Assembly: GCA_044892525.1 (NCBI GenBank)
Contig: CM097887.1
Location: 18,786,001-18,850,000 of the forward strand
Length of the DNA: 64,000 bases
Direction of reading: 5' to 3'
Source: Schmidtea polychroa
Taxonomy: Eukaryota
This document shows positions 2,644-52,204 of this stretch, piece after piece. Position 1 is the first letter of the stretch. The number at the start of each line of letters is the position of its first letter. Made by a program: the position numbers and the translations under genes. Below the pieces are notes generated by a model. The model had not been told where the DNA came from and made no database searches. It saw only the letters and a program-made list of their open reading frames with translations.

Positions 2644-3097
2644 CCCTATTAACACTAGGTTGTGACTTTGAATCACATTTTGTTTTAATTACTAGATATT
2701 ATACACAAATATATTGATGTTTCCAAATGATAACAATGTATTCACAAAAAAATCTAAAAATAATTCTACAGCAGTCATGGAGATTAGTATATTAAAATTA
2801 TTGTTTCGGTTCTTTTTCTACTGGTATATTAGTGTTTATATGAAATATTTGATTCAACTGTTATCACACTTTTTTCAAAAATATAATATTTTCAAGATAA
2901 ATAATTATATGTTTTATTCGAATGATGAGATGGCCAAAAGAATTAAATTGACTCAAGCAGAAATAATGGCAGCTTTAGACGAATTGGAAATTCAAGGTAA
3001 TGAAGATGAAACAAATGAAAATAATCTCTCAGATAGTGGAAGTGACCTATTAGAAACTACTTCCGAAAACAGTGATGAAATATTTGTAAGTAATTAG
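2644..3097 (+). mobile_element. piggyBac 5' end fragment
   Basis: TTAA (2640-2643) followed by CCCTATTAACACTAGG. Downstream is an acidic N-terminal peptide MAKRIKLTQAEIMAALDELE...SDSGSD, typical of piggyBac transposase N-termini. Confidence 0.55.
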
Positions 3098-3099
3098 TG

Positions 3100-3410
3100 A
3101 AGACGGTTTAAAAACAGCTACACTTCTTGAATTTGTGCAAGGTCCGCAAGACTTTGGATTAATTGAATCATATCCAATCATCAATATTGCTATACGATTA
3201 TTCCTCACACTGCCAGTATCAATTGCTTCGTGTGATAGAATTTTTAGCAATTTAACATTAATTAAAAACTATTTAAGATATGACAAGATAGATTATCCAA
3301 TTTTGTCATAATTCCTATTTCGTAAAGGATATTAATTATGACGATATAATTAATGAATTTGCTCAAATGAAAGCTAGAAAAGTACGATTACACGAAAATT
3401 AAATAATCTT
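3100..3410 (+). pseudogene. hAT dimerisation-domain fragment
   Basis: Reads ESYPIINIAIRLFLTLPVSIASCDRIFSNLTLIKNYLR. Confidence 0.8.
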
Positions 3411-4529: not shown

Positions 4530-4956
4530 TATTTTCCATATTAATCGAGCTCGGGTTTCCTTCATCTCTCAGGTTCTTCATTGGCTCGGGTTTCCTATTA
4601 GCTCTGGTTTTCAATTAGCCAATTAATTAATTAATTGACGATTTTCTATTATCACACATTCTAGTGCTTTTTGACCCTTTCTAAACATTTTCTGATAATT
4701 TCCTAATCACCGTCTTGTTGACCATTACTTAATCTATACCTGACCGTTTTTTCGATTAAATTTAGATAAATTTACAATTTATTGATTTTTTCGGATTTGA
4801 GGATTTTTGCCTATCGTAACTGCTTTTGCTATTTCTTAATACCGTTTCCATCATAATTTCCTTTGCCATCAATTCTATGCATGACCACAATTTTATTTGT
4901 CTTTTTCATTCGACTTACATTTTATTTAAATTTATTTTAATTTACTGAACTCATCA
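4530..4956 (-). mobile_element. Partial LTR of the family seen at 24703-25618 and 50801-51839
   Basis: Reverse complement matches the 5' half of the 50801 LTR, including (TAAT)n-TGGCTAAT and the CCCGAGC repeats. The terminus is eroded (AACTCATCA vs ACCTCAACA). Confidence 0.75.
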
Positions 4957-10181: not shown

Positions 10182-10760
10182 TGTTGGGCTGAATCGAAGG
10201 GTATCCAAGAAATTAGGTTAAACATAATGAAATTAAAATAAAAATGAAACAAAAAACAAATTTAAGAATAAAATAGAATAGGATATAAGAAAAATAATAA
10301 ATTAGAAAATAAGAGTTAAAACAAAAAATATAAAAATAAGGAAAATTGAAATAGGACAATAGAATGACAAAAAATAACGTAAAATGTAGTAAATAATAAA
10401 GAAATTAAAGAAAATAAATAAAAAACACAATAAAAATAAAGAAAATAGGAAAAAATAACTCAAAAACAAGAAAAATAAATTAAAGCAATAAAATTAAGCG
10501 GCACTCAATTCTGATTGGTCCGCACACATCAAAAATTAATATATAAGGAAACACAAAAATTATAAACTTACAGTTAAACAACCAACTTTACAGGTAAGAT
10601 AAATTTTAACAGTTACAGTTAAACAACCAACTTTACAGGTACACAGCAACAACGTACGAGAATCAATCTAGAAACCAGGAGATATTATCAAACAGTTAAT
10701 AATCGACGTAAATTTCGAGTAACCATTTATTCGATTCGATACCTCCCGACTCAGCCTATA
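10182..10760. mobile_element. Possible solo LTR or TIR element
   Basis: Begins TGTTGGGCTGAATCG and ends CGACTCAGCCTATA (imperfect inverted termini). It has a purine-rich interior and an internal direct repeat TTACAGTTAAACAACCAACTTTACAGGTA twice (about 10568 and 10612). Confidence 0.4.
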
Positions 10761-10929
10761 AATCTATACAAATTACTTGGTCAGGGATTTTTCGATTTAT
10801 GCTTTTATCTAAGTAATAGTAGTCATGTAATTTTATGAAATAATTATAAATTTAACTGAAAATAGTTTCCTTTTCGTTTGATTCCTAATGATAAATTTGC
10901 TAATTAGATGATTTAGTTATTCAATAAAT

Positions 10930-12266
10930 GAATTATTATGAACTTTTTATGATTGATTTTCATGCATTATTATTTAATGATTATAAATTTCCGAGAAACG
11001 TGGCGTTGAGAAACTCCATGTCATGGTATGAGGTGCCTTCGGGAGCTCGGCCGGTGGACATGGCGTTTTTCAATCACGCAGCTGATTCGGGCCGTAATGT
11101 GGGGGCTTCCTCACGGGTCCGTCGCTGAAGATGCGACTAAAATAGGTGATCAATACTGTAGAGAGATGGTAACTATCAAGCAATGGGAAGTGTAGGCATA
11201 TGAGGAAAAATCTTGTTCGAGAGTTCGCACAGTGATTGAGGGCGTCATACTATTGTCTTTATCAAATTGAAACTGGTACTATCATCTGAAGATCTATACA
11301 GGATTCTCCGTTAAATCAGTCTGGACATCATTTGTAGCATATTATCTGCGTTCATGATTCCACTCGAAATTATTCCTGAAACCTTCAGCCTAAGGATCTT
11401 CACAACTGCTACTTTCATCATCTATATCCATCACGTGCAATCAACTTTGCTGCGTCTCTCTAAAAACCTACTTGTGGTGAATTGTGACAAACAAATAGTT
11501 CTCAAAAATAATAAACCATAAAATGATAATGAATATAGTCAGGAAAAATGTATTTATAAAAACAATCAAACATGTCATTCCCTTGTATATCGAATACCAA
11601 ACGTTTGTGGCAACTGATGCAAAGTTAGGATGGGAGGTAACTGATCCGATAGACCCTCCATGGGAATAAAATCCGAGTCTTAGAGATGTCACAGAGGATG
11701 ATGGAATATCCGCATTTCGTCGAATTGTATTTCCAGCGATAGTTAATAAATTTCCAACTCGATATAGACAGTGGGCATGTTGATGATGATAAAATCCATG
11801 AGGGGAGTAGAAATTATAGCTTGAATAGTTGACCAGTTTGTCTACGAAACGGATTACATCCAGTAATAGCGGTACGCAAAAGCTACCTATGCAAAATTTC
11901 CACGAGAGATAGAAATTCAACACGGTGTAATATAACATCTGATGATTCATGCAAGCTGCCAAATAGGATAAGAGTCTCACGAAGTGAGTACCCGCACACA
12001 TGTGTAAATGCACACATTGCAAGTTCTAATAGCCAAAATCCACATGCTGGTGCTCACCAATAATAACACGGATATCACTAGCCATAATTCTAAGAGCCTA
12101 TCTTCCAGGTGATACGTTCCTTGAGATCGCATAGTCATCTAACCCGATAGTAGATAATTCACCGCGAACGGCTAACTTGAGAAAAGTCCACCGGGTGTGT
12201 CATATAAAATCTCGGCTAATTACCGAAAGCACTAGACATGAGTGATGATAACACGAGTCACCAACA
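10930..12266 (+). mobile_element. Decayed LTR-retroelement relic ending in an LTR terminus
   Basis: GC-richer block with broken reading frames, ending ...GAGTCACCAACA like the other LTR 3' ends in the window. The 5' boundary was not identified. Confidence 0.45.
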
Positions 12267-12640
12267 ACTCAATAATTAATTTTAAAATAGTAAATAAATG
12301 TGAGATTTGAAAACAAAATTATAATAAATTATAGACAATATAATCGAAAGCCTAAATAAAATACAAACAAAATGCAACTCAATTAATCCAAGTCTATTAC
12401 TGGAACTGCAAAAATTTAATATTTTTGCTTAATGATGAATTAAAACCAACTTATCTAATTATCTATAAAATCATTATAATGATTAGTTAAATTTTCACTT
12501 AGTAGTTATTTAGTTCGGGTTGAATTTTCAATGCTATTTACCCTCTTCAAGAAAAATTTCCGTCATCAATAATTCCTCTTAAACATGTAATTTTCATTTT
12601 CTTTAACAATGATGTACAACCTTCGTTAAGTAAAGCCTAA

Positions 12641-14140
12641 TGTTGTCAGTTGATTTTCTAGTGGGTAAACACCCAGAGTACGCATAGGTTGATGACATAG
12701 GAAATCCCTCTTGATAAATAATCCGTTTTTCTTTTCCTGTAAAAATGTCTAATATTGATTAACGAATGGTGGCGAAAAGTGATGATTTTCTAAATTTGAT
12801 CTACCCATTTAGTGTTATTATTCTTCTTAGCTAGCAGACATGTTACCCACTGCAAAAACCGTCCTCAGACCCTGTTTTTCTTGTTCCGACAAGAACGCGA
12901 TAATCAAGGACCTGCAGACCCAGATCGGACGGTACAAAAAGAGGATAGACGAGTTAGAGGGGACATGGTTTAGTCCCTCCCAGATGAAAGAGACCCAAAA
13001 GAAATTACACCGAAGTGAACATTGCCGGGACGCTCTAATCTCCGAGAGTCGTGCCCAAAGAAGTTTGATCAAGGAGCAGTCCGAGGCGCTGCATAAAGTG
13101 TACATCCAGGCCGCGGCAACTAGAAGGATAGTGAAAATTCCCATCGGTGAAGCCGACAATCTCTTTCCGGCCCACCATGATACTTCTGCCAAATCGTCGC
13201 TCCCTTCGAAAAAACCTTGCCGGCCGTGCGTAGAAACGCAACTCTCGCCAGAGCAACTGGAGGTGGTTTTTGTTGGAAATAGTCGGGTACTGCCTAACGT
13301 CGCCTCTACATCGGCGGTAGCCCCAAACAATTCATCGACCAACAAGCCAAAGCGTCGGCAGCTTTCAAGGGCTGAACGCAAAAGGAAACAGCGTGAGCGA
13401 ATAGCTGCGAAGCAGCCCAAGCAACTGCCGGACCTCGGGAGTAATGTCAATAACGTCCCTGCTGTAATTGACCTAACAGCAAGAACACCTGGGCGGATCA
13501 TATCTGCCGCTGGGGTGACGTGGGAGGAAAACGCCTCCGAATTCTTCAATTTGGACGAGTTACTCGCCGACTCCGAGTGGGAAAAATGAGGATTTTCCCG
13601 TGAGATGACCTCATCCGTCGGAGAGTCCTGAATCAACTAACATCGTTTCCTGTCCTTGTGTTTTCTCTTATTCTAATTCTAATGTATAAAGTACGACGCG
13701 CCTGTATTGCAATGTTTGAAATAAACAATTTTTGTCTGTATACGGGTTTTGATTTTCGTTCATAAGGGATTTAACATTGAGTGGTAAATAGCATTGAGGT
13801 TTTTGAGATTCGAGGAGTACTGTTCAATTTGCAATCCAAACCAAGGGTACGGCGACAGGGTGACAGAATGTGTAGACGTAAGTCCTTCTATCGGCAGTCA
13901 GGGTTAGGAAGTCGGGGTCTCAGTGAGGAGTAGTCCGAAGGTGGCTCACCTGCTCACTGGCACCTCGCCATCATAGCACAGTTCCAACGTGAAGCAATTC
14001 ACGGGTGCTATGTTGGAGTATAGGTTATGTACGGGCCCTGCTCGGGGTGACACAGTAATGACAGGTATAATCGTAACGGGCGTTCATCCCCTAGGCTAGA
14101 AAGTTGAACTAAGGGTGGTCAACCGTGTAGTGCCCCAACA
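12641..14140 (+). mobile_element. 5' LTR (1500 bp)
   Basis: TGTTG...CAACA termini, TATAAA at 13685 and AATAAA at 13720. It is followed after 7 nt by the PBS. Confidence 0.85.
12840..13589 (+). CDS. Intact 249-aa ORF inside LTR U3 (CxxC, coiled coil, basic NLS-like tract, VIDLT SIM-like motif, acidic/aromatic C-terminus)
   Basis: ATG-initiated open frame upstream of the LTR TATA box. Related peptide tails occur in LTRs at 3-122 and about 29360-29517. Confidence 0.7.
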   Translation: MLPTAKTVLRPCFSCSDKNAIIKDLQTQIGRYKKRIDELEGTWFSPSQMKETQKKLHRSEHCRDALISESRAQRSLIKEQSEALHKVYIQAAATRRIVKIPIGEADNLFPAHHDTSAKSSLPSKKPCRPCVETQLSPEQLEVVFVGNSRVLPNVASTSAVAPNNSSTNKPKRRQLSRAERKRKQRERIAAKQPKQLPDLGSNVNNVPAVIDLTARTPGRIISAAGVTWEENASEFFNLDELLADSEWEK

Positions 14141-14147
14141 TAATTTT

Positions 14148-14165
14148 TGGGGGCTCAGCCGGGAT
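14148..14165 (+). promoter_or_regulatory. Primer-binding site complementary to the tRNA-Pro 3' end
   Basis: TGGGGGCTCAGCCGGGAT matches the classical tRNA-Pro PBS TGGGGGCTCGTCCGGGAT at 16 of 18 positions. Confidence 0.85.
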
Positions 14166-14471: not shown

Positions 14472-14957
14472 ATGAAGGAATTCGTGGACCAGATACAACA
14501 ACTAATCAACTTCATAAACATCGAGAATGACTCCTTTAAAACGCTGACACAAAAGAGAGAAAGAATTAACATCATACTACTCCAAGCAATCGGGCAAACA
14601 CCAGTCGTCCCCAACCACATGTTATTAGCCGCAGGACTAAGTCACCCAGATGGGAAGATAAACCCTGAAACCGTGTATCAATGGTATCAAGAGAGATTGA
14701 ACCACCCAGCATTAAATCTTGATTATCAACGTATAAAAGATCCATTAAGTACCATATCAGATACAATCGAGCGAAAAATACAAGAAAAACTGACCCTACT
14801 ACGAACTTGTCTTGCTTGTAAACTTCGTCCTATTCGCGTACTGTTCTTGCCGTGTGGACACCTCAGTCACTGCGAAGAATGTGTGAACAACTTAAAACGA
14901 TGCCCGATATGTAAGCATGAGATAAAAGAAACTCATATGGTTTATTATGGTGAATGA
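14472..14957 (+). CDS. 161-aa protein with C-terminal IAP/MDM2-type C3HC4 RING finger (putative E3 ligase)
   Basis: CLACKLRPIRVLFLPCGHLSHCEECVNNLKRCPICKHEI at the C-terminus. A splice-acceptor-like TTTTTTTATAG lies just before the ATG. No BIR repeat is visible. Confidence 0.9.
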   Translation: MKEFVDQIQQLINFINIENDSFKTLTQKRERINIILLQAIGQTPVVPNHMLLAAGLSHPDGKINPETVYQWYQERLNHPALNLDYQRIKDPLSTISDTIERKIQEKLTLLRTCLACKLRPIRVLFLPCGHLSHCEECVNNLKRCPICKHEIKETHMVYYGE

Positions 14958-15519: not shown

Positions 15520-15967
15520 CGAGCTGTTGAATAGTCCAGCCGGTCAAGGAAAATGAAAACTGAGCTGTGAAAAGTCCAGCCAGTTCGGAGAGATTAAGAT
15601 CGAGTTGTTGAATAGTCCAACCGATCAGAAGGAAGAAGATTGAGCTGTTGAATAGTGCCAGCCAGTCGTAAGATCGAGTTGTTGAATAGTCCAACCGATC
15701 AGAAGGAAGAAGATTGAGCTGTTGAATAGTGCCAGCCAGTCGTAAGATCGAGTTGTTGAATAGTCCAACCGATCAGAAGGAAGAAGATTGAGCTGTTGAA
15801 TAGTGCCAGCCAGTCGTAAGATCGAGTTGTTGAATAGTCCAACCGATCAGAAGGAAGAAGATTGAGCTGTTGAATAGTGCCAGCCAGTCGTAAGATCGGG
15901 TTGTTGAATAGTCCAACCGATCAGAAGGAAGAAGATTGAGCTGTTGAATAGTGCCAGCCAGTCGTAA
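15520..15967. repeat. Tandem array of five 74-bp units (40+34-bp dimer) plus diverged leading subunits
   Basis: Units start at 15601, 15675, 15749, 15823 and 15897 and are almost identical. Both subunits share the core GAG(T/C)TGTTGAATAGT(G)CCA(A/G)CC. Confidence 0.95.
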
Positions 15968-17292
15968 AGGCCTAGAAAACCAAGAGATAGCAGTTAAGCT
16001 AAAATGAGATAATATTTAAATTAATAGTGAAATGGAATATTAAAGCTAGCTAGAAACAAATTGAATGTAATTACGAAAATTTGAGTTTAGAGAGGAAATA
16101 AACGAGCTCGTGGAAAAGATGATAGGATTATAATGAAAAAAGAAGGGGAAGAAGGAAATGAATTAAAGAGATAATGGATAATAAAGAATAGGTGAAATGA
16201 TGATAATGAGTAGAAGAGGAAAGTAACTAACTAATTAAAGGGATCCCAGTGAAGTAGAGAAACTCTACGGAATAATTTTTTTGGGTAAACCGGAAAAATG
16301 CATTTTTATTGGTTCCAGAGTAGAACCGAGTGGGATAATAGTAAATATGAAAAGTAAAATAGCGGCAACAGCGCAAAAGGAATAAGAAAACGAAGGGGGG
16401 TAATAAGCAGAGACCGACAACGACCTATTTATATTATAATTGATAGCGAATAGATAATTATTACGACTTTATAGATAATTGTTACTACCCCATATAGATA
16501 ATTTAAAATCGACGAAAAATACGGGCTGATGGGAAATTATAACCCGCGGAAAGGATTTCACAAAAGATAGGGGAAGCACAAACAGAAACCTAAAAGGTGT
16601 CTGTGTTTGAATGTTGCAGAAAGAATGATGAAGTCGTGTAAGCAGATGCAACACGAGATCATTTTTTCATTTTAGATATCAAATCAAGCCAGCCAATCAA
16701 GCCAATCCAGAACCTGCACAAAAGGAATTCGAGGAAATCGACAATCGACCAAGAATAAATCCATTCAGAACCCGCACCAAGAAACCCAGCAACCGGAAGA
16801 CTCCAGAACGGAAGAAGATACAGATAGCGACATCTCCAACTTCGAACAAATCACCGATATATTCAGCCTCATAGTATTAGCAGCCATCTGCCAAGGACTA
16901 GCAAATCTCCTCAGAATCTCAGTAGCAGATTCATACAGAATACTTTTCGAAGGAAACGCAATCAGATCCGAACTCGTCCGGTTCAGTAGCCGCTAATTAC
17001 AAAGAAGCGTAAGAAAGGAATCACGGATAAACCCAATCTTAGATCGTCAAGTAAGACAAGAGACGTATTATTTTCAGGAGACGAATTACAACAACTCAAA
17101 AGAGGACGATCTATTAAACATCAAAGAGGAATATCACAAGGAGCAAGAAGAACCAACCAAACAACCGTATTTGACCAAGAAAATCTCGAATACACCCCTA
17201 GTCGATCTCAAAGCAGAGAAAGTCTGTCCGACATCACTAATAGTTTAGCAACGTCAACCGAAGAACTATCAGCCCAAAGTTTAGTCACATCA

Positions 17293-18657
17293 TTGGATAA
17301 GTTAAAAGAAACAGACGAATCTAGAACACCAATCATGACGAATGTCGTAAAAACCGACGAGTATAAAGAAAAGTTCCGAGGAGAACCGTTCAATGGAAAT
17401 GCAAACAAGTTAGCAACGTTTATAACTAATTTTGAAGTTTATATCACGGTGTGTGGATGGATACCCGAAGCAATTAGCAAAAGGATGCCGTTGTTTTTGT
17501 GCGATAGCGCATTAGAAGTATATTTAGAAGCTAAAGAGAGAGATACGAAATTAGAGAAGTGGGAAGATATCAAAACATTCTTGAAGAAAACCTTCGGAGC
17601 CAGTAAGCCAATCAACCAGGCGTTGGGCGAACTAGCAAATAGGAAACAAAGAGCGAACGAATCGATAACATTATATGCCAGTGAATTAAGAAGATTGGCG
17701 AAGAAAGCAATGAATGGGAAATTACCCGAGGAAAATCTGATTGGCTATTTCATAGAGGGATTACGCCGAGAGGAGGTAAGAGCCTCAGTAGGTTGTCAAA
17801 TGTGCAAAACGTTAGAGGAAGCCATAGACTGGGCTACAAGATGCGAGCTCCACCTTCCAGCTCAAATGAATATTATGCAAGAGGATGGGAGGATAGCGAC
17901 AGCAATAGCGAAAGCGGATAACGGAGATAACAACAATCAGGAACCGAAAATGAATCAATTTATACCAGGAGCGCATCAAATTTTCAAACCACCACAAGGA
18001 CGATCAAATGGGAATAATGGTAATCGTAACAACTTGAATAATGAGAACAATTTTAATAATCGACGAAATATGAACGATAACAAGCAGTGCCGAACATGTG
18101 GTAAACCAGGACACTGGGACAGAGATTGTTATAGAAACGCAAATTGTAATCGTTGCGGACGGCGTGGACATACGGAAAATAGATGCCAGTTGAGAGGTTG
18201 TTTTAACTGTGGTCAGCCAGGTCACATCTCCAGAGACTGCCGAGAAAGGGACCAACCACAACGACCACCACAACGAAATACTAATTACATGTCGAATCCG
18301 CAACGACAAAGCAACCCTAGTGAAGGAAAACAAATGAACGTTATGCAGGAAATCTCACAAATGAAACAGATGATGCAACAGATGATGAGACCAAGACAAG
18401 AACCAGCACCACAACAAACCCAGAATATACGTATGATGAGGAGTACCGAAAATCTCAATAGTTATGAAGTACATCAACATGTACAAGAATGGCAAAGACT
18501 ACAGGCCGAGGAAGAGAGGATAAAACAAGAACGCAACCAACAACGACAAGAACAACCATTGCGAATAAATATGATGAAGTTAGTAAATGACATGAAAAGC
18601 CAGTACTGCTACAATTACGGGAAAAACCTAAGGGTAGTACCCATGACTGAACCATAG
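17293..18657 (+). CDS. gag: Gag: retrotransposon capsid domain plus three CCHC zinc knuckles
   Basis: PFNG...FITNFE...W...L.DSALEVY...WEDIKTFLKKTF, QRANESITLYASEL and FIEGL capsid motifs. Knuckles are CRTCGKPGHWDRDC, CNRCGRRGHTENRC and CFNCGQPGHISRDC. Confidence 0.95.
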   Translation: MDKLKETDESRTPIMTNVVKTDEYKEKFRGEPFNGNANKLATFITNFEVYITVCGWIPEAISKRMPLFLCDSALEVYLEAKERDTKLEKWEDIKTFLKKTFGASKPINQALGELANRKQRANESITLYASELRRLAKKAMNGKLPEENLIGYFIEGLRREEVRASVGCQMCKTLEEAIDWATRCELHLPAQMNIMQEDGRIATAIAKADNGDNNNQEPKMNQFIPGAHQIFKPPQGRSNGNNGNRNNLNNENNFNNRRNMNDNKQCRTCGKPGHWDRDCYRNANCNRCGRRGHTENRCQLRGCFNCGQPGHISRDCRERDQPQRPPQRNTNYMSNPQRQSNPSEGKQMNVMQEISQMKQMMQQMMRPRQEPAPQQTQNIRMMRSTENLNSYEVHQHVQEWQRLQAEEERIKQERNQQRQEQPLRINMMKLVNDMKSQYCYNYGKNLRVVPMTEP

Positions 18658-19290
18658 AAGGTAAAAGAAACGACAACGGAAATGAAAACAGAGAATTCAA
18701 CCACGATCTTAAACGGGAACCAGAGAATTCAGAAAATATTCTGGAAAAAGATAAAAGATAAAATCGAAAAAGAATATAATAAAGCGAAAACCGAGACAGA
18801 AGAGGAAAATAACAAGAGCAAGGAACAAGCCAGTCAACCAAACCGCCAAATGCTACAGGAACGGGAATCTGAGGAAACAACGATATTCGAAAATAGAAAA
18901 CTAAAGAGGGTACCTAGGATGAGAAATTTGCGAATCAACATGATGAAAAGGACAAAAGGTACGTCGTCCTCAGACGAAGACTATGTGAGCAGTTTGGGTG
19001 GAGAAATACTCGAAATCGAAGAGGAAGAAGGCGAAAGCGAAATAACCAGCGGAAGTGAAGACGAGGATATAGAAATAAAGTTGAGAAAAGAGAGGGAGGA
19101 AGCGATAAAACAAGTAGCTGAAATACTCCCAGTAGTAGTGAGGAACCAAGAGTTCATCGATATAATACCATTCAGACGATTCGTGCAAAAAGTGATGAAA
19201 TTGGGAAGAAACGAGAAAGATTTAATACCAAACGAGGAAAAATCAATTATAAAAAATTATATGGAAAAAATGAAGCAGGCCGATACCACG

Positions 19291-19512
19291 CGGTATGTAA
19301 TAAAAATCGGAACGAGTAGAGGACTTGAAAGAATGTGGATTAAAAATACAGTCACCGACGAACTTTTCGATTGGATACGAGAACATTTGGGAAGTTCGAG
19401 AAAGAAAGAATATCTGTATCAATACCAAGGAGAACAGATCAAACCAGATATGCACTTAGTGGATGCACTAATATGGCCAGGAGAAACGCAAATACTGAAG
19501 TTGCACAAAGAA
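19291..19512 (+). other. Ubiquitin/SUMO-like domain 1 in polyprotein
   Basis: RYVIKIGTSRGLERMWIKNTVTDELFDWIREHLG...YLYQYQGEQIKPDMHLVDALIWPGETQILKLH follows the beta-grasp pattern. Confidence 0.5.
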
Positions 19513-19808
19513 AAACAACCAGCAAACCTGTACGATTGGGCTAAAGATGCCAAGGCGAATATGATTTTAATATCAAATTGAAGTTAGAACAAATAAAGCA
19601 ATGTACTCTGAGACGAAACCTGGACAAGCTGATCAAACAAATTCAAGAACAAGTGGAAGACAACTGGGATTTACTCATCACCAGACGAGCCCCAGCCATG
19701 TACGAACTAATGAGCCGGTTGCGAGATACAGAATTGCTCCGAATGAGTGATTGGAGAACCATAAATTTGATCCACAAATATGGAAGGTTAAAAGAAACCC
19801 AGCCGCAG

Positions 19809-20063
19809 AGGTTGGAAATAACCATATGGTTACCGAACGAAGAGAAACGACGAATAAAAATGAGCAATCAGAGTACAGTGGATGATTTGGTATCAAAGAT
19901 AAACCAAGAAATAACGGAAAAGGTACGTAGCGAAAGTAGTGATGGTATGGTGGATGATGTAGTCATGATGTACGATAAAATAATATTACGAGCGGAAGAC
20001 GACACCTCGTTGAGCGAAATGGGTATGTGGGACGATCATCAGATAATCAGGATAGTACCAATG
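19809..20063 (+). other. Ubiquitin-like domain 2 in polyprotein
   Basis: LEITIWLPNEEKRRIKMSNQSTVDDLVSKINQEI...VVMMYDKIILRAEDDTSLSEMGMWDDHQIIRIV parallels the ubiquitin pattern TIxxVKxKI...LIFxGKxLxDxxTLxDxxI. Confidence 0.65.
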
Positions 20064-20756
20064 GATGAATTTCGAACAAGAGACGTAACGTATCAAAAAG
20101 AAATACGAGACCGGATGAAAACGTTATATCAAAAATCTACAGAAATAATTGAAATTCACCAACGATGGTTAAAAGAAAAGGAACTACGAGGAAAAATCAC
20201 GAAACTAAGCACCAGATCCTGCAGACGAACCCCGTGGGAAAGAGTGTGGGATATAGAAAATAAGGAATGGGAAATCCGGAAAGGAATCTTCGTAGAAACA
20301 GACATTGGGGAGACAGAAAGTGAATCGGAGGAAGAAGAAGAGGAACCCCCAGAATATGAAGAGGAAGCAAGGGGACAGATCTCAGATGACGAAAGCGAGA
20401 CGGATGTCACGTCAGAAAGCGAAAATGAAGCGAGACATATTCATGCAATGCGGAAAAAGGAACGTGAATATGCCGATATGGACGGCGAGGAAGCGACAGA
20501 AGCAAGAGAACGAGAAGAGAAAGAAAGATATAAACAATTAGGCGATATCTTAGCAATGGGAGCGAAAAATCAAAAACGTCAGGTAGTAGCATTGGCTAAT
20601 ATCATCTTAAAGACATCAGAAAATATCCACAATCTGAGAGAAATGGCGAAAGTAATAGAGGAATACCGGCAATATAATGAATGGTATCCAGAACAGCTAG
20701 AACAAATTATTCGAAAATGGAGAAATCAAGAGTGGGCACAAGACACCCAGGAGAGG

Positions 20757-20960
20757 TATCACATCCGAATCAAGTATCCGGACAAGAGCATTGAAGAACT
20801 AGAAGTACATCCAACAACGAAAATTAGAGAATTAAAAAAGAAATTAGCATATGAAACTCCATTCCATCTGCAACTATTCGGAAAATCACTAGACGATAAT
20901 GTAGACGTCGGAATAACACCCATGAGATTAGAAGAGACTACTGTGCTAACAGTGGCGGAA
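20757..20960 (+). other. Ubiquitin-like domain 3 in polyprotein
   Basis: YHIRIKYPDKSIEELEVHPTTKIRELKKKL...LQLFGKSLDDN aligns with ubiquitin LEVEPSDTIENVKAKI...LIFAGKQLEDG. Confidence 0.7.
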
Positions 20961-21587
20961 ACGTTGGGAAAACCGTTGAAAAGGAAAAGCAAAATTAATA
21001 AACCAACAAAAGGTAGTTTGAGTACTCCAAGTCCAAACCAAGCCCCAAGTAAATCTAATGAAACTGAAGAAGTTGAAGAGATTATCCTCGAAGATAGTGA
21101 CGACGAACCAGGAGAAAGATCACCGCTATTAGTGAGATGGCCAACAGGAGCCGAAATATGGACCAACAACCAACCATCAACAAGTTATCAACAACCAACG
21201 AAACTGAACATCAAGGAAATCGTCGACAATACTACAGAAACCGAAACGGATGAACGATTCCAGAAGCAAAGAGAACCAACAAAAATAACACCGGAAGGTC
21301 AAACTGATAAAATAATAGATGAGTGGAATGAGTGGCTGAGAAATAACGATAGCTCATTACCCAGAACAGATAACGAAAGAAATCCGAATTACGAAAATAC
21401 CAGAGAAGCTGGAACGATGATGGAAAAACGGGCAAAAGGAAGACCTAAGAAACAAAGAGAGAAATCTGAGTTCAAAACCAAGGAACAAGTAAAACAAGAA
21501 CAAGGACAAGTTCGATTGGAAAAGTTAGATAAAATAGTATGGGATCTAAAAGAAGCTCAACCAACGATCGAAAGAGGAGAAAAATGA

Positions 21588-21975
21588 ATACGAGAATTGA
21601 TCAAAGATATGTTAATAATAACAAATCCACAACTTAGACGCTTGTGGCAACGGAAAGTAGCCAGTGTAGAAGCTAGACAATTATGGCACATCGTATCGGG
21701 GATAATCCCAAAGCTAATCAAAGAAAAAACGAAAACTACCAAAACGGATTGGGATGAAACCAAGAGAGTGATTGAACAGCTCACGACAAATGCAAATGAT
21801 GACGAACATCATCTAGTAGTAATCACTTAATTGATGTATAATTTGATGGGATTAGCTGCAAGGAAAATACCTAATAAACAGTTCGCAAATCACGTAGAAA
21901 TGACCGTGTCAATCATAGAAAACACTATTGAACCCCATATTATCCGTGCCGGAGGATGGAAAAGACTTATACAAA
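21588..21975 (+). other. Bcl-2-like domain (one in-frame stop)
   Basis: BH2-like IEPHIIRAGGWKRL (cf. Bcl-xL LEPWIQENGGWDTF). Helix spacing from RVIEQL to GGW is within one residue of Bcl-xL QVVNEL...GGW. The NWGR of BH1 is not conserved. Confidence 0.65.
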
Positions 21976-22081
21976 CGCCACGAAAAAATGAGCAAGAAAG
22001 GTCGATGCAAGTTAGATTGAAAAAGCTGTTAAATGAACTAGAATGGGAACTACCGATGAAAGATCCAGCAAGCAGAAAAGC

Positions 22082-22298
22082 ATCAATAAATTCGTTAGTG
22101 ATGACTATGATGATATGGATGTTGTGCACAAGTGGAGCAACGGGTTTTACCATCTACGATTGTGATAATATGATAATGAGAGATAAATACTCATTGAGAG
22201 ATATAGAAGAATGCAGACAAGCATCACCCAACAAATTGGACATAGTAAAAACAAAAGTTACCTACCATGTATATCAAGAATCAGATTTCATCACCTGA
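22082..22298 (+). other. Signal-like hydrophobic segment and start of env-like glycoprotein
   Basis: SINSLVMTMMIWMLCTSGATG followed by FTIYDCDNMIMRDKYSLRDIEEC. This YDC...SL.D..EC pattern opens env-like ORFs of several invertebrate gypsy elements. Confidence 0.55.
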
Positions 22299-23286
22299 TT
22301 GATTTAGATATTTTCTTTTTTCGGTGATACTTTTGTTTTTTCTGTATTAAAATATTTCTTTTGCAACTGCTTGTGCGTAACAATTTATTATTTTGTTTTA
22401 TTTATGTTTAATTGGTGTTTTTATGTTGAGCGGCTTCGCATTAGCCTATTATTTATAATTACTATAAATGTAATTTTAATCAATATTTTACTCGGGTTCC
22501 CCTCGCAAGATGTCGTTCATTAGTTACATAATTCAACCCAACATATGCTTTTCAAATAATCCGTGAAGGATGGACACCGAGAGACTTATGGAGCATCATT
22601 TATCAACACTCATAAAGCTTGTTTTATGACAGATCCAATCACAAAATTTTATTCTATACTAAAAAATCTCAAAAATATTATCACATCTCTTAATTTCAAA
22701 ATACCCACAATAAAGGTTTAATTTGTTTCTAGGTCACCCCAAATTAACTCATTTAAATTGTAATAACACACTTAGTGTGACACTACAAAAACATCCATCT
22801 AAAATCGCACTAATTTCCGTATATTGTATTGTCCATTTAACATTTCTGAATCATTAAACAAATATTACAATGCCACATTGTAGTGGTTAGAAATTTGCTT
22901 GCCAAACATATTTATGATGGAAAATTTCACCACAAATGTTTTCTTATAATGATCTGATTTCAACACATTAACATTTCAATATAGGCTAAGCATTTGATAA
23001 TTTAAAAAAAATCTTTAATTGGAATGTTAAAACAAAGTCGAAATAAATGAAATTAACTACGTAATGACATTAATAAATATTTAATATTTCTATTTTTAAA
23101 ATAATGCAATTTGTAAATTTAAAATTGTATTTACCAAAACTGTTTGCTACATAAACCGCCAAAAATTTTAAATAATTTTTAAACAAATTTTGATTTCATT
23201 GTTAACAGTATAATTAATCATCCAAATAAAATTTAAAATAGCACCATAAAATAAAACTTTATTTTATTAAATAACACATTTTATCA

Positions 23287-23849
23287 TTACTCCTTAAGCG
23301 TAAGCTTATCATATAAGTAGGTTCCAACTCCTGGTCCGTTTCGACGAATATTTGTTAGATGATCAGCTATTTCTTTCATTGAATCTACTTGTTCTTCCAA
23401 AAAGTCTTCCAGGTAATCAGTCATTTGTGGATCATTGTGTGTCTCAGCTATTTTGTGCAAATTAAGCAATGACTAATACAAATTGCTCATTAAGTAAAAA
23501 ACTATAAGTGATTTTGAAGTCATACTTGATTAACTTCTTTTTCAAGAGTTAGCGCAGTCTCAAAAGCTGTTTCCGGAGTCCATTCAACAATTGAAGGTTT
23601 GGCAATATCTTTAAAAACAATTCTACCACCTCGTTTATTTTGGTATTTCATCAAATTTTCAGCATGTTCTCTTTCTTCTAGTGATTGTTTGTGAAAAAAA
23701 TGACTAAAACCTTGAAGAGCCACATCATCTCGATTAAAATAAAAACTCATAGCTTGGTACACATAACTTGCATGAAGTTCTTTGTTAATTTGTTCATTAA
23801 TACCTAGTTCAGATTCAGAGTGAAAATTCTGTCGCACTTGAGAATTCAT
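23287..23849 (-). CDS. FTH: Cytosolic H-type ferritin, 169 aa, two exons (23526-23849, 23287-23472)
   Basis: Ferroxidase residues are present (KELHASY, EEREH, LEKEVNQ, LEEQ). A 53-nt GT..AG intron at 23473-23525 joins NQ|SLLNLH in frame. No signal peptide. Confidence 0.97.
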
Positions 23850-24702
23850 GATTTATGAAATTACTTAAATTTCAACTTACAGTTGCTTAAATACTTTGTG
23901 TGTGTGTCTAAGTACTGTATGTGTGCAATGAATGTGATTGCATAATTTTCTCACACACACTTACAAAAAATCACATTGCACGTATGTAACTTAAATTTAT
24001 AAATTCTATTTGTAAAATTTAAATTTTAAGATTTTGTATTTTATTTATTTGAATTTTTTAATATCCAAATTAATGTTAACATTTTTCTAATTTATTTGAG
24101 AGAATTTGACTTAAGTAAAGCTGAAGTTGCAAAATATTAAAAATATCAAAAATATTTTATATCGGCCGAAATTATAAAAAAAATAGTCGTGAATAAATGA
24201 AAATTTATATAGCAATTATGTAATTTAAACAATACAATTTTGAAAATATTTAATATTTTTTGATTAATTTTTATAATTAGAATTTCATTATTTAATTTTG
24301 TAAGTCGTTTTTACAAATTGTAGTTGTTATGTTTACGAGAATAATCCTAGCAGTTATTTCTTTGTATACTTCAGGTCGTCCTTCGGGTATCATTCTGAAC
24401 TCTAGTTATCCTATATCACACACTATGGTAATTTATGAAACCTTATCAAGTGGTTCAATAATGTATGTGTTACTTTTCGAATGCACATCTGAACTCCATT
24501 TCAAATTTGTATGAGATTTGACCGTGTCAATTTTTCGAATAAAAGTCATTTACAAAAAGAGTTACTGTGCAATTTGTCTAGAATTCGAAATGGAAAATAA
24601 GTCAATTAAGAAAGTATTGCGTGTCTAAAAGTGTCAGAAACAGAAAAATTAGAAATATTTTGCTTTTCAATAAAATTAATTTTAAATTCTTATAAATACA
24701 TT

Positions 24703-25618
24703 TGTTGAGGTTTTGAAATTGAATGGCGGTCAAGCAGGGAAGCAATGGCAAAGAAAGATATGATAAAAACATAACTATAAAAGGGTACAATCAGACATGA
24801 AATGGAAAAATGCTCAAACCTGAGGAAGTGGAATAAAATGAAAAGTTATCGAAATTGAAGCTGGAAAATGGGAGAGGGGTAGATTAGTGTATGGTGAAGA
24901 AGACAGTGATCAAGAAATTGCTAGAAAATGTTTAGAAGGGGTCGTAAAACAGGCAGATAAAAAACCCAAAATATTAATTAATTAATTAATTGGCTAATGG
25001 AAAACCCGAGCTAATGGGAAGCCCGAGCCAATGGAAAAGCCGAGCGCGGCAATTTGGGAGGATAAACAAATGGGGAAGTCAGAGAGCAATTATCCAAACA
25101 GCCGGATAAACGAGGGTAAACAAAAGAAGGGGAATCAGGAAGAGGGTCAACAGAAATAGCTAATTAGGGAATGATAACTAAGGAAGTCAAAACCAATTAG
25201 GTCAAAAATAGGGCAATTACAACGATTATGGGAATATATAAGGAAACTCCAAATTCACATAATTGGCAATAGCCTTAGGTAGGGAAGAAGAAACCGACAT
25301 TAGAAGTTAAAGGAATAGAATAAAAGAAGAAAAAGAATTATAGGAAAAACTGAAGAGTTAGACAAGGAGCGTTAAAAAAGATTGGATCAGAGAGTGGAAC
25401 TAAATCAAAAAGTGAAACTTAATTTTTTAATCGTACAAGGTTGAGACCTTCCAGAGCAGAGTCCGATCTGAAATTGTGTGAGAATCAGCTGTGTAATTAA
25501 TTGTGAGAGTTAAAAATTTTTATAAAACAAATATACGTTGGGAGTTTGTGTTTATTGATTTTGGAACACGTGGAGTCAGAGTAACCAACGGTTGATTTTG
25601 ATATCATAAAACCCAACA
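24703..25618 (+). mobile_element. Solo LTR (916 bp)
   Basis: TGTTGAGG...ACCCAACA termini and perfect 4-bp TSD CATT. Homologous to 50801-51839. Confidence 0.92.
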
Positions 25619-33029: not shown

Positions 33030-36000
33030 AAATTGTTCATATGCATTACGAAACAAATAAATGGGAAAGTGAAATCACGGTTAACTAATAACAAGAGAGA
33101 TATTGATTCTAGTTCGAGTAATGGAAGTGGATATGGGGATAATGACAATGACAAACCAAAAGTACCTCCCATGTATTATTATAAAAATAATAAAACGAAA
33201 AATGATATAAAGCAAAAATCTAAATCTGAGTTTATTACATACAGCACCACAGACAAGTGGAACAGACAATTTCAGTCGATTATGTATTCCAAAGACTTTC
33301 CTTCCAACAGCACCAATATATCCAGTGGAAAAACTAAAGGAAATGAGACCAATTGAGAATTTTGAATTAGCAAATGAGTAAATTGTACCAACGAGTGCAG
33401 AAATTGAAAGGAGAAACATGCTGGGATTACCAGGAAATTATGCGTTAATGACAAAGGCAGGCAACCAAGAATATGGGTACAAGTAAATAAACATAGAGTT
33501 GAAGCATTATTAGATTCAGGTTCAAGTAATACGATATTATCAGACGAAGGGTTGAATTCAGATGAGAAAGCACAAATGAGAAGTACAGAAAGTGGTACGA
33601 TCAATGACGAAAAACAAACTAAATATTATTAGGCAGATTAGAGTCAAGTTCAATATTGGAAATCAGGAAATTGCTCATGATGCTCTAATAATGCAAAATT
33701 ATCCAGTGGAATGTTTAGTGGGTATGATGTTTTGGCACAACTAGGAGTTTGTCTTGATTTAAAAACCGGAAATTTGATTATGGGAGAAACGGGAAAAGCC
33801 ATCCATGAAACAGGAGATGTGTTTCTAAACCAAACATTAAGAGTTCCACCTCAAAGTGAAGTTATTTGTTATGTAAATACAATAGGAGTTCCAGACGATG
33901 AATTTATGTTTCAACCAAGTGAGAAAAGATACATATCCAATTCTTCAGGAAATGTTCGACAAAATGGGAGAAGCGCAATATTTTACTGTTATTGATCTAA
34001 ATAAAGGTTATAATCAATTCAAAGTTAAAGAATCAGATAAAGGAAAAACTGCATTCTCAGATGGAAAATGTTTGTATGAATTTAATGTTTTACCATTTGG
34101 TTTAACAGGTGCGCCAGCAACATTTTAAAGACGAATGAATTTTGTACTGAGAGATATTCCACGCGCCTTAGTGTACATAGATGATATTATAATATTTTCA
34201 AGTGATTTCGAGGAGCATATGAGAGATGTGGAAACAGTGTTTAAACGGCTCAGAGAAGAAAATCTAAAAATCAAACCATCAAAATGTGAATGGGGGTAAG
34301 TCAGAAGTAGTGAATGTCAGACATATTATTTCACGGAGAGGTATACAACCGAATCCAGACAATGTTAAGAATATCAAAGATTATCCTATTCCAAAAAGTG
34401 TTGAGGATGTCAGACAGTTTCTCGGATTAGCAAGCTATTATAGAAAATTTATTAGAAACTTTGCACATGTTGCTCAACCATTAACAATGTTATTAAAGAA
34501 AACTATTAAATTTATGTGGAATAAAGCTCAGCAAGATGCTTTTGATATTCTCAAACAAAAATTGTTAAGTAATTCAATATTGCGATACCCAGATTTTACA
34601 AAGATGTTCATATTAATGACAGATGCAAGTGGTTTTGCATTAGGAGCTAAAAGTGGAAGAAGAAAAAGATCATGTCATTGCATATGCTAGCCGATCACTG
34701 AGATCCCATGAGAAAAGTTACTCAACAATCGAAAAGAAATTTGAGCTTTAGTATATGGGATAACAACATTTCGACAATATCTAGTAGGTCGAAAATTCAT
34801 TGTTTACACACACCATAATCCGTTACAATGGTTGATGAAACATCGAGATGCAGCAAGCAAGTTGATAAGGTGGTAAAATATCGAACAGGAAAATCAAATG
34901 GTAATGCAGATGCATTGTCAAGGATTTCAAATGAGGAAATTAATGTTGACCAGGAAGAAATAAATTTGAGAGATACGGTATTTGCAGTAATTAAAGGAAA
35001 TGGATGATAAGCTAAAACAAATAATCAAACATACCGTAATAATAAAAAGGGACAGTGAATTAAAACAATTAATTGAGGAAAAGCATAAATATGTCATATA
35101 CAAAGGCATATTAAAGTATATTAAAGGCTATGAATTATCAATAGTGGTTCCAACTAAACATCGAAATACGTTATTGTTACAATATCATGATGGAGCATTG
35201 GGTGGACATTTATCAGCAAGAAAAACAATGTCACGATTAAAACTGAAGTATTTTTGGAATACAATGGACCAGGATGTAAAGAATTGATGTAATACGTGCA
35301 AAATTTGTTTAACTCGAAAGAATACGGGAAAGAAAATAAAGGTACCATTGAAACTAATGCCAATACCAGCAGCGCCAATGGAATGTTCAGTAATGGATAT
35401 TATCGGGCCTTTACCCGAAACTACAAATGGAAATAAAAATATATTGTTGTATTTTGTGATTATTTAACAAAATGGCCAGAGAGGTACGCAATGCCAAATC
35501 AGAAAGCAGAAACAGCTGCTCAAATATTTGTCGAAAAGATTATATTTAGATATGGTCCTCCAAGGAAATTGTTAACAGATCAAGGAACAAATTTTCAAAG
35601 TGATTTATTTAAATCTATTACCGAATTATTTGGTATTTATAAATTAAATACATCACCATATCACCCGCAGACAAATGGGCTAGTAGAAAGATTTAATGGT
35701 ACTCTAATCAATATGATCTCATCGTATGGAAACAAAAGGATTAGGACTTATTTATCAAACCATGTCTGTTTGCCTATCGACATGCAGTTAACGAGAGCAC
35801 TGGCGAAACATCTTTTTATTTAATGTATTTGAGACGAAACAACATGCCAATTGATTTAGAACTTCAACCCCCAACTTCATAATACTTAGACGTTCCAAAC
35901 TACAAGGTGATAATGCAAGAACGATTGCAGTCTGCATGGACTCCTGCGGGGTTAAAAAGTAAAGTATCGTCAAGAACAATATAAAGAAAGCTATGACAAA

Positions 36001-42278: not shown

Positions 42279-42680
42279 CAAAGAGTAGATATGAACAAAT
42301 AATGAAATGGCGTGACAAAGATTTAGACGGAGTTATGATTTCCAATGAATGTTTTGGACGTACTAATATTTTAATTTCGTCGGACCAGGAAAGGTTGCTG
42401 AACCTGCTGGCCGTAAAGGAAGAATGGTTGATGTAGATGGAAAGGTTAGGTATGAGTCAAGAAGAGAAATATAAATTAGCCCCGATCAAATAATTTTGAT
42501 TGAAAAAGACCATTTTAATAAATGGGAAAAACTGATTATATGAGACGCTGCCAGTACTGGTATTTCTTTACACTCCGACAAAAGATTTGAAAATAAACGA
42601 CATAAATTTCACAATACTCTCGAATCGCCCTGGTCAACTGGTAAAACTTTACAGGCATCGAAGTCAAATAGAACTAATAT
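42279..42680 (+). pseudogene. SBNO: Decayed strawberry notch (SBNO) helicase copy
   Basis: KSRYEQIMKWRDKDLDGVMISNEC (cf. RLxQLLxWCGxDFDGVIVFDECH), GPGKVAEPAGRKGRMV...YESR and AASTGISLHSDKR...TLESPWS (cf. AASSGISLQADRR...TLELPWS). Contains in-frame stops. Confidence 0.85.
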
Positions 42681-43469
42681 AAGATATGTTATGAATGAAA
42701 TATACAACATATTTATCGATGACGCAGATGGAGCCCAGAAATTAGGATAACATAAGCATCCACAAAGTCACTAATATCATCACCGGAATTCCTTGGGAAT
42801 TGTCTAAAGAAGAGTTTGATCAAAAATCATTACCAAACCGTAAAGAATCTAAAGAAATATCGAATACTTTTTTTATTAATATTGTAGAGAATTAAATTTC
42901 ATCTATACATTGTTACATTAAAAACTCAATAAAATTATTTTAACTATATGAAAAATGCAAACTTTACAAAAGACGTGCGTGTAGCGCAAACAACACATAA
43001 TTTTTGCTATTACGAATTCTTAGAGAATTACATTTAATCTATGCATTGTTACAGTGAAAACTCAATAAACTTATTTCAACTCGGCGAACAATTAAAAATA
43101 TACAACAAAAAGATATACATAGTTATACTAAAAACGAGATCAAACCTTTTCAATTGACTGAAAAATTCCTTTAAATAAAGAAGTATGGTAGAATACAGTG
43201 TCTGGTCACATACTCCCAAATCTAGATATAAGTATGCAGATAAAAATTAAAAAATTTATAATATATGACGTGATCGGTGATTAAAAAAATATAATTTGAT
43301 CTTATTGGCCTTGAAAAGTTCGAGCAAATTGGACAACTGAGTTTAACAAAGCGTCAATTTAATCAATAAGTTTACCTAAAAATTAATTATTTCAACCCGC
43401 TTGGTAGATTATGCTCCAAACATTTCACAATTTCACTTTTAAATTTTCTGACTGTATGAAAGAAGAACT

Positions 43470-49246: not shown

Positions 49247-52204
49247 CTACGGCATTTTTTCACGTCTATCTTTTTCATTGGCCCAATATTGATAAACTTC
49301 ATCTAAATCTATATTTTTTTGAGACATTAAATGTGATTTTATTCGCATCAAGCATTCCAAATGATTAATTTCAATTCTATTTCTAGATTTAGTTTTTATA
49401 GAATTCATTAAACTTAATCCACGTTCACAATCGCAACTGGATGCTAGAAATGTTGAGCTAATGTCTAGTAAAAATTTCAGTTCATTGAATTGGTCATCTT
49501 TTAAAACGAAATTCACCAAGTCCGTGAATGTTTGAATTGAACCAGCTTGTATTTTTCGGCCACAATAAATTTTAATGTGGTATATTGCTGGCATATCGTC
49601 TCTGCTGCAGTGTTATTAAAATTGGGAATAAACAGAATATTTTCGTACTAACTTTAGAACACTTTCTTTCCCAAATTCAAAGTTAGTAGTGTTTGCTATT
49701 TGCACCAGGATCGAATGCATACCACTCTATAAAATCTTCTTCATGGAACCTACTCTCCGAGTGTTTACATAAAAGTTCAATTAATCGAATAATTGCAGAT
49801 GTATCAACGTCATTGTTTGATAGAGCTAAAAATTTCTTGACATCATCACTCCAACATACTACATCACTCAAATACTGACTTTTCAGTTTATTTATAGTTC
49901 CTTTTGCAAACCGAAGAGCTTCCAATGATGTTAAACCACTTCTTTGAAATAATTTGGTTAGTGCAGCAAGGTCGCATAAAACTTCATTTAAAATTACTAT
50001 TGCAACATGGTGTTGTGGATTTTTAAGCATTTTCAAACAATATTTGCTAATAGGATCATTAAAATTTTGGACCTTTTCGGTGCAGTAGTCAATTAGGGTA
50101 TCATAATTTCGAATTAAAGCTTTCACGGCAAAGTGTCTAGAAAGCCATCTTACTTCATTGAGTGGTCGAAACGCTAGTGCATCACATTCTGTTAAATTAG
50201 CCTTTTCTTGAAATTGTTCTTTCCTTATAGACGATCGGTGAAACATAGTGTAAACTGTCCTCAAAAGTGTTTCGATATCCTGCATGATCGAGACCTGTCT
50301 GCAAGCATCATCTATGGCAAGATCTTCTTTGTGGGCTACGCAATGTTGTTCAGATAAATGCTTAATTTCATGTCGAAGTCGTGCTGCTACACCATTATTT
50401 TTTCCTAACATAACTGAAGCTCCATCAGAAGTAAAGAGTACCATTTTTTGTAAATTTAGATTATTGTCAGCATAAAATGCTTTAATTGCTTCTACAATAG
50501 AAATGCTGTCGCAACCGGTCATTTTTAAAATACCACAAAATTCAGTTCTGTATACAAATTCACATTCTGGTCGATATTTCATGTATACTATTAATATTTT
50601 CTGTACAGAAATATCTGTACTTTCATCCATTGTCAGTGTATGGAAACTCGATTTACGTAATTCATCAATGAATTTTTGTTTTATTATGAAATTTATACAT
50701 TCGACAAATTCATATGCATAATTTTTACTACGCCATGAATGAGGAATTGATACATATTTAGCCATATGTTCATGTATTGCTTGCATCGAAAGCATAGATG
50801 TGTTGAGGTCTGTAAATTAAAATTAAAAATTTAAATAAAATTCAGGATAATAATTTAAATAGATAGTAAGCGAAGAAAGAAGACAAATAAAAGCGGGATC
50901 GCGCACAGAATCAATAGTAAAGGAAAGTGTGATGGAAACAGTATTAGAAAATGCCAAAAGCAATTACGAAAGACAAGAATCCGGAAATCCGAGAAAAATC
51001 AATAAATGGAAAAATCATCGAAATCGAATGGGAAAAACGGGACAGGTATAGATTAGCTAATGGTCAACAAGATGATGGTTAGGGATTTATCAGAAAATGG
51101 TTAGGAAGGGTCGAAAAACATTCAAATGTATGAAAACAGAAAACGTTAATTAATTAATTAATTGGCTAATGGAAAACCCGAGCTAATGGGAAACCCGAGC
51201 CAATGGAGAACCCGAGAGATAAAGGAAACCCGAGCTGGGTAAACAAGAAGAAAAGCCCATTAGCTTGACATAATGATTAATGGGAAAAGAGTAAGGAGAA
51301 GATAACGCGCGTAGGAAGACCGGTAGGGCCATTAATTATCTGGATTCCTTGGACCATTATGGGTGACAGCCGAAGCAAACACGTAGGAGCAAATGTCAAA
51401 CGAAAGATTGGCTCGGCAATAACCATTTGTCATCCTGATTTCGAGGAGTATATAAGCAAAGGGGAAATCAGAGAAAATCGGCATTTTGCCTCAGCTATGG
51501 TTCGAAGAATCAGACTGTAGGAAAAGTTGGTAGACGAATTAGGGAAAGTAGGGAAAAGAAGAAATAGAATTAAGAATACGGAAAGGTGAAAAGAAATCAA
51601 ACCAAACAGAAACCGAGGAAAACGTGAATCGATAGAATCTAAAGGACTAAAAGGTGAATATTATTTGTTTGCAAAGCATGAACGTCGAGCGTAGAATCGT
51701 ATAAAACTTTGATTGGTAATTGTAGCGTGATAATAAATTGTGAACCTGTTGTTTCAATATACGTTGGGTCGTTCATTGTTTTGATTTAAAGAACACATGA
51801 GTCAGAGAGAACCGACTTGAAATAATCCAAAACCCAACAGATGTATTTATTTGGATTCCAAGTATCACATTATCAATAAGAATTTTTACCATATTCCGAT
51901 CAGATCGCTTGCGTTCAGCCAAATCGGCTCTGTTCTTAGAAGTTTCTGGCGTTTCGTTTAAAAGACGTAAAATTCCACCTCCCATTCGATTCCTTAAGGT
52001 AAATACAGAATCAGTATGAACCTTTTGTTTTAAATGTCTTTTTAAATAATCTAATTTCCAGTCACTCCATTTTTTTCCACTAGAAAATTCTCCTGGAGCA
52101 CTTACTTCTGAACAAAATTTACACGTAACTTCATCTTTTTCAATACAGTAAATGAAAATTTCTCCAATTTTAACTTTTATGGTTTTATTAGATGAAGTTG
52201 GCAT
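49247..52204 (-). pseudogene. hAT transposase (TTF zinc finger, DDE core, dimerisation domain)
   Basis: CKFC...YLKRH; TMDESTDIS; FTSDGASVM; HCVAH; EVRWLSRH; SCDCERGLSLMNSIKTKSRNR. Removing the LTR and one TSD restores QINTS-MLSMQ in frame. Confidence 0.92.
50801..51839 (+). mobile_element. Solo LTR (1039 bp) inserted in the hAT transposase
   Basis: TGTTGAGG...ACCCAACA termini and perfect 4-bp TSD GATG. Confidence 0.95.

Follow-up and report, generated by a model that had tools for sequence, protein, structure and literature searches.

The closest described relatives of the locus analysed here are the Burro elements (GYPSM1, Burro1 to Burro4). According to the available part of PMC6431247, they encode a single polyprotein of ~5,000 aa, whose Gag has two or three CCHC knuckles and in which a Ubi2/SUMO-like domain precedes a BCL-2 domain; the env, which matches mononegavirus fusion glycoproteins, lies between BCL2 and the protease. 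Upstream accessory ORFs, tandem repeats (in a figure legend) and decayed copies are also described there, as are domains that vary among Burro elements, namely BIR, ankyrin and MATH_TRAF_C, the last being in ORF1 in the Schmidtea Burro1 and in an accessory ORF in Dugesia tigrina. The BCL2-like motif, attributed by that source to Grohme 2018, is therefore already published for Burro at its place between the Ubl and an in-frame env. A second set of relatives is formed by six Schmidtea GAG-ENV-POL elements, whose gB-type env is bordered by a signal peptide or a membrane segment (PMC13524379, available part); neither Bcl nor Burro is mentioned in the main text of that paper. As to cell death, flatworms are described as retaining BAK, a few BCL-2 and APAF-1 (PMC11463336, in part), and a Burro1 protein with BIR and RING is stated to protect stem cells from apoptosis (PMC13465017, in part, citing Lee et al. 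2026 Dev Cell). In the literature searched, whose coverage excludes Grohme 2018 and Lee 2026, there was no functional test of the Burro Bcl-2-like domain or of an anchor shared with Env.

The window, i.e. the whole stretch of 64,000 nucleotides of Schmidtea polychroa DNA that was analysed (GCA_044892525.1, contig CM097887.1, 18,786,001 to 18,850,000), is AT-rich eukaryotic DNA with TE remnants, and Rfam and tRNA scans of it were empty. An element occupies 10.2 to 22.3 kb of its plus strand (Table 1). With high confidence, we assign the stretch at 21588 to the Bcl-2-like domain of a dead copy of a Burro-type giant Ty3/gypsy LTR retrotransposon (GAG-ENV-POL endogenous retrovirus), because the order Gag (three CCHC), Ubl, BCL2 and Env, in one reading order, is that published for Burro ORF1.

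Table 1. Parts of the element, its breaks and its cut end (positions in the window).
Feature	Position	Strand	Basis
Putative 5' LTR, 3,959 bp, TGTTGGG to CCCAACA	10182..14140	+	terminal 7-mers inverted; the PBS-like site follows the right one
PBS-like site, tRNA-Pro type	14148..14165	+	16 of 18 nt as in the MLV PBS (PMC4587795, available part)
Intact 161-aa accessory ORF, C-terminal IAP-type RING finger	14472..14957	+	Pfam zf-C3HC4_3, E 1.4e-12
Tandem repeat of a 74-nt unit in five copies, lying between accessory ORF and gag	15595..15967	+	
Gag: capsid domain ~17488-17769, three CCHC knuckles ~18085-18243	17074..18654	+	Pfam, translation
Break 1, in-frame stop	18655..18657	+	inside the P0003 ORF
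Break 2, frameshift	19545..19554	+	P0003 residues 972-973 contiguous, window switches frame
Possible ubiquitin-like domain 1, weak	19806..20060	+	UN_NPL4 E 0.093, UCH_UBL1 E 0.15
Ubiquitin-like domain 2	20745..20960	+	Pfam ubiquitin E 0.0019, below cut-off
Break 3, in-frame stop TGA directly before the Bcl-2-like domain	21585..21587	+	inside the P0003 ORF
Bcl-2-like helical domain, 129 codons	21588..21974	+	Pfam Bcl-2, identity to P0003, low-confidence all-helical model
Break 4, in-frame stop TAA inside the Bcl-2-like domain	21828..21830	+	inside the P0003 ORF
BH2-like motif IEPHIIRAGGW	21927..21959	+	aligned to the end of the Pfam Bcl-2 profile
Charged linker, 44 residues	21960..22091	+	between GGW and hydrophobic core
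Signal-peptide-like stretch with a basic RK, a hydrophobic core and A-x-G ahead of a likely cleavage site	22074..22145	+	sequence, hydropathy
gB-type (chuvirus-like) envelope ectodomain, first 50 residues, then cut	22146..22295	+	PF24664, Schmidtea gB starts
Junction: unrelated T-rich DNA in place of remaining env, pol and 3' LTR	22296..22543	.	base switch

The surviving part was compared with the Burro layout of PMC6431247. The N-terminal Gag gave Retrotrans_gag (E 2.2e-10) and zf-CCHC (E 1.3e-10), with three CX2CX4HX4C in the translation; a ubiquitin-like domain lies upstream of the Bcl-2-like one, which itself was found, weakly (E 0.036 to 0.049), at the expected place before an in-frame, mononegavirus/gB-like env. 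The upstream accessory ORF, the tandem repeats, the AT-rich host and the decay by stops and frameshifts are likewise shared. Instead of a pair of long LTRs in an element of ~30 kb or more, one putative 3.96-kb LTR with a PBS-like site is present. The comparison ends in env, as PR, dUTPase, RT, IN, the 3' LTR and the total length are lost from this copy, and it shows a likeness to the Burro group in domain order rather than to one named family in sequence. Pfam found no MATH_TRAF_C, BIR or ankyrin in the ORFs scanned or in the relative P0003 (see below). Given that these domains vary among Burro elements, their absence argues against Burro1 itself, not against the Burro group. Two Burro1 primers (PMC8532177, available part) had no match in the window, which says little.

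The bounds of the putative LTR are tentative, because no second LTR was found in the window and the terminal 7-mers are present 9 times there. The PBS-like site occurs once in the window, and the PBS table of PMC13524379 holds no matching tRNA end. Inside the putative LTR lies a coiled-coil-like ORF of 248 aa (12843-13589, plus strand), for which no family was found and Atlas gave only leads below 0.9; it is accompanied by a 269-codon antisense frame and by 11468-12025 on the minus strand. Ubiquitin-like domain 1 is outscored by two unrelated families. Domain 2 matched designed ubiquitin variants at E 0.19 to 0.35, and its region is largely gapped against P0003.

The RING of the accessory ORF is of IAP type, since the best 10 of 20 PDB matches were RINGs of cIAP1/2, XIAP or BIRC7 (top E 6.5e-12). 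Pfam detected no BIR in this 161-aa ORF, whose N-terminal 100 residues have no family assignment; this is a difference from the B-IAP of Burro1 as described in the available part of PMC13465017, with which it shares the IAP-type RING in an accessory ORF. This ORF has remained intact, against four breaks in the polyprotein.

A single relative was found by search, P0003, 1 of 1,210 candidates of 414 to 2,000 aa. There was none among 135 candidates of 129 to 413 aa, none among 1,234 candidates of 2,621 to 5,000 aa (a weak negative), and none among 1.84 billion representatives. P0003 is one unbroken ORF of 1,497 aa, colinear with 17074-21833, from gag into the Bcl-2-like domain. All four breaks of the window copy, three stops and a frameshift, lie inside this open frame, and are therefore read as damage to the window copy. 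This agrees with the earlier note, which had taken the TAA for a probable post-insertion mutation, by a narrow reach in the case of this stop, P0003 ending one residue past it and before BH2/GGW. Residue 1497 is probably a fragment end; a recurrent break at this position is possible. An Atlas search with residues 1408-1497 of P0003 yielded no usable match. With its three stops, its frameshift and a cut ~50 residues into env, the window copy is dead.

The Bcl-2-like stretch lacks its own start, being part of the polyprotein. The TGA before it ends a 680-codon ORF (19545-21587) in the same frame, and the frame that follows (21588-22295, 236 codons) is interrupted by the TAA alone. The earlier note let the domain begin at 21588; this position is no gene start, and the second stop had been overlooked.

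Identity to P0003, measured in 80-residue windows, amounts to 57-62% in the capsid core and falls to 30-36% in the region preceding the domain (20151-21584). Where the Bcl-2-like stretch begins, it is 61% (over 82 residues). As this is far above the upstream region and similar to the capsid core, the domain appears from the sequences to be kept under selection.

We next consider whether the domain is a Bcl-2 homologue, as the earlier note had proposed. When the 129-aa stretch was used as Pfam query, with the stop read through as X, Bcl-2 (PF00452) was the only family at E<=0.1 (E 0.049, 14.6 bits), aligned over profile positions 29-100 of 100. With a 105-aa version it ranked first of three (E 0.036, 15.0 bits), and with the unbroken C-terminal 50 aa, which hold BH2, it came second of two (profile 71-100, E 0.22, 12.5 bits). 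Every one of these scores is below the curated cut-off of 31.4 bits. The N-terminal 30 residues (21588-21677) and 80 residues (21588-21827) gave no match alone, and the sole match of a 236-aa version was Ribosomal_L17 (E 0.022). No other protein of the same scan (18 proteins) matched Bcl-2. The chance of the match is P ~1.5-2e-6 for a named family (E divided by the 24,736 models), and ~0.002 over the whole window, allowing ~1,000-1,200 stretches of such size.

Structure searches were uninformative, because both single-sequence AlphaFold models, all-helical, were of low confidence (pLDDT 50 for the first and 45 for the second). No Foldseek match reached E<=0.001. Bcl-xL or Mcl-1 made up 15 of the 48 rows listed for the first model, all of them at E>=1.1, with rmsd 7.7-13 A and from a redundant library; this count leaves out two chains of Bak-binder entries. 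For the second model it was 1 of 47. PDB sequence searches returned chance rows only, and no Bcl-2 chain.

Alternatively, the polyprotein could have here a helical domain that is unrelated to Bcl-2, with a GGW likeness due to chance. The sub-threshold scores speak in this direction, as do Ribosomal_L17 and RuvB_C, which score about equally on overlapping pieces, and the low-confidence model searches with VIA-align (0 of 50 listed rows Bcl-2, generic helical proteins only) and against the viral library BFVD (no named Bcl-2 among 50 listed rows). We nevertheless find this improbable: the Pfam match covers 72 of the 100 profile positions, Bcl-xL chains (ranks 3-5) are the best natural proteins among the Foldseek matches listed for the first model (pLDDT 50), and a BCL2-like motif was independently reported at the equivalent place in Burro-2, -3 and -4 (PMC6431247, available part). 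A true Bcl-2 homologue is thus what we consider probable, and the earlier note was probably right on this point: the sub-cut-off match, the local conservation and the published Burro order favour it, while the fold models leave it undecided. What the stretch has in common with the Bcl-2 family, cellular (Bcl-xL/Mcl-1) or viral, is a domain of ~130 residues modelled as all-helical, a GGW at the BH2 position and a hydrophobic stretch downstream; unlike family members, it scores below the cut-off, has neither NWGR nor a clear BH3, and sits inside a polyprotein.

Two observations of the earlier note on motifs held. The BH2-like IEPHIIRAGGW is present, in a window that contains GGW only twice in 127,996 six-frame residues; a longer BH2-like pattern, composed after the site had been seen, occurs once. 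The BH1 signature, NWGR, is indeed replaced, being nowhere in the window. The BH3 signature L-x-x-x-x-D was not clearly found in the Bcl-2-like stretch either, and because both signatures are missing the BH3-binding groove may be lost. The start REL-x-x-D-x-L, common to the stretch and P0003, presumably resembles BH4, and P0003 has at the BH1 position an R-L-V-A-L that we take to be BH1-like.

These losses bear on function. A Bcl-2 fold without a role in apoptosis through the BH3 groove, acting as an innate-signalling interaction module, as some poxviral Bcl-2-fold proteins do, or as a membrane scaffold for Gag-Env, would account for the missing BH1 and BH3 signatures and for the place of the domain, which a structural polyprotein holds between its Gag and its Env. 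That viral Bcl-2 proteins can lose BH motifs and can have non-apoptotic roles independent of the groove is described in the available part of PMC7022251. Such a reading, the main rival, is possible, though we regard it as rather doubtful, as Pfam Bcl-2 is matched best by the BH2 end, P0003 retains its presumably BH1-like R-L-V-A-L, and the IAP-type RING in the same element points to an apoptosis theme.

Downstream of the domain, a hydrophobic stretch lies in frame at ~22083-22154. The earlier note had let this anchor follow the domain directly, which proved wrong, 44 residues separating GGW from the hydrophobic core. Its other proposal, a signal for a following glycoprotein, was supported by hydropathy and by alignment with PF24664 (Monjiviricetes_fusion, E 7.7e-4, profile 4-68 of 653), which also places the start of a glycoprotein behind the hydrophobic stretch, in the same frame as the Bcl-2-like stretch. 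The region 22074-22145 aligns with the first positions of this profile. Its likely cleavage site was placed by the (-3,-1) rule for signal peptidase. Because the alignment includes the very start of the profile of a stand-alone fusion protein, the hydrophobic stretch is first of all, and very probably, judging from its sequence, the env signal peptide.

The identity of the env start is also visible in its last residues, YHVYQESDFI, which match the starts of 6 of 6 Schmidtea errantivirus gB sequences, with 10 of 12 positions for Smed_5 (PMC13524379 supplements). VYQESD occurs twice in the 1.75 million characters of these supplements, both times in Schmidtea GAG-ENV-POL elements. The window copy thus has the GAG-ENV order of these elements, and its last env residues correspond to the start of the listed gB (available part of PMC13524379); only ~13 residues overlap, and none of the six is identical. 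Bcl-2-like, gag and signal-region motifs were absent from the supplements, which hold a 309-column part of env only.

At ~22295, a strong A bias gives way to T-rich DNA. A 3' LTR at 22296-22543 was considered and rejected, its alignment score (35) being below the maximum of shuffled sequences (43). The DNA replacing env closes with a 13-mer (22531-22543, minus strand) that matches 12 of 13 positions of the putative LTR start, reversed, and that may mark the border of another LTR element in inverted orientation; beyond it similarity did not exceed that of shuffled sequences, and a target-site duplication was not found. No pol domain was detected among the ORFs scanned from the junction to 33 kb. 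Further on, at ~33400-35820 (plus strand), lies a separate decayed gypsy pol (PR-RT-RH-IN) with many stops and frameshifts. It was rejected as the missing pol: its protease comes directly before RT, no env or dUTPase was seen, and 11 kb and a ferritin gene separate it from the element. This two-exon animal ferritin gene (~23290-23850, minus strand), with a short AT-rich intron, lies ~1 kb past the truncation. Other contents of the window are a fragment of a strawberry notch homologue (42544-42747, plus strand, E 2.8e-11) with stops nearby, remnants of hAT-type transposases (1173-1424, 3090-3308 and 49683-52246; Dimer_Tnp_hAT, DUF4371, zf-C17orf113), and diverged copies of a MITE-like repeat of 300-390 bp with a 17-nt internal unit (4548-4932, 24716-25044 and 50852-51236).

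A cut only 50 residues past the hydrophobic stretch, and an upstream ORF (19545-21587) open over 680 codons, might suggest that the host co-opted the truncated copy as a tail-anchored Bcl-2-like protein. This is extremely improbable, given one stop immediately in front of the domain and one midway through it, added to the upstream stop and frameshift, none of which P0003 has; that the two stop codons differ speaks against programmed read-through.

The function of the domain is best considered in intact copies, with the Env signal peptide as the preferred reading of the hydrophobic stretch. One polyprotein would be made, whose internal signal peptide (22074-22145) would target the gB-type Env to the ER. 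Once signal peptidase had cut behind this peptide, the upstream part would stay on the cytosolic side of the membrane, its end formed by the Bcl-2-like domain followed by the linker and the spent peptide; the protease of the element may release this upstream part. Flavivirus capsid anchors are a comparable case of anchoring by a spent signal. The dual role suggested by the earlier note would be coherent, because cleavage would leave the Bcl-2-like domain cytosolic and joined to the spent peptide, in the orientation of a tail anchor. That the signal peptide doubles as a lasting anchor is unlikely all the same, and we keep its odds low because of the weak hydropathy (best 19-residue Kyte-Doolittle mean only 1.39, at 22098-22154), the 44-residue linker and the possible protease cut. 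The stretch also differs from the anchors of the Bcl-2 family in its distance from the domain, and in that it leads into an ectodomain instead of ending the protein. Most anti-apoptotic viral Bcl-2 proteins have membrane anchors (PMC5691641, available part).

The domain may be a captured pro-survival Bcl-2 fold, damping mitochondrial apoptosis in the cells that express the element, beside the IAP-type accessory ORF. We arrive at this best guess because the same element has an IAP-type RING and flatworms have BAK and APAF-1; the chances that the domain is anti-apoptotic in intact copies seem about evenly balanced. As the best explanation of the whole locus, a dead Burro-type copy with an Env signal peptide and a captured pro-survival Bcl-2 fold appears likely. 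A further proposal, quite unlikely in our view, is that in intact Burro elements the Env signal peptide, once cleaved by signal peptidase, is reused as a tail anchor of the upstream Bcl-2-like domain, each round of Gag-Env-Pol synthesis obligatorily yielding a membrane-tethered viral Bcl-2 that would block mitochondrial apoptosis of planarian stem cells.

The Burro BCL2-like motif and its place before env being in print, and the copy dead, we attach little weight to the locus as a discovery. Two points are added here: between two diverged relatives, conservation of the Bcl-2-like domain equals that of the capsid, and the env signal peptide is the best reading of the hydrophobic stretch. Were the reuse of this peptide true, Bcl-2 would join the IAP accessory protein as a second arm, hard-wired to envelope production. 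Should the domain be pro-survival, such elements would carry two captured brakes on cell death.
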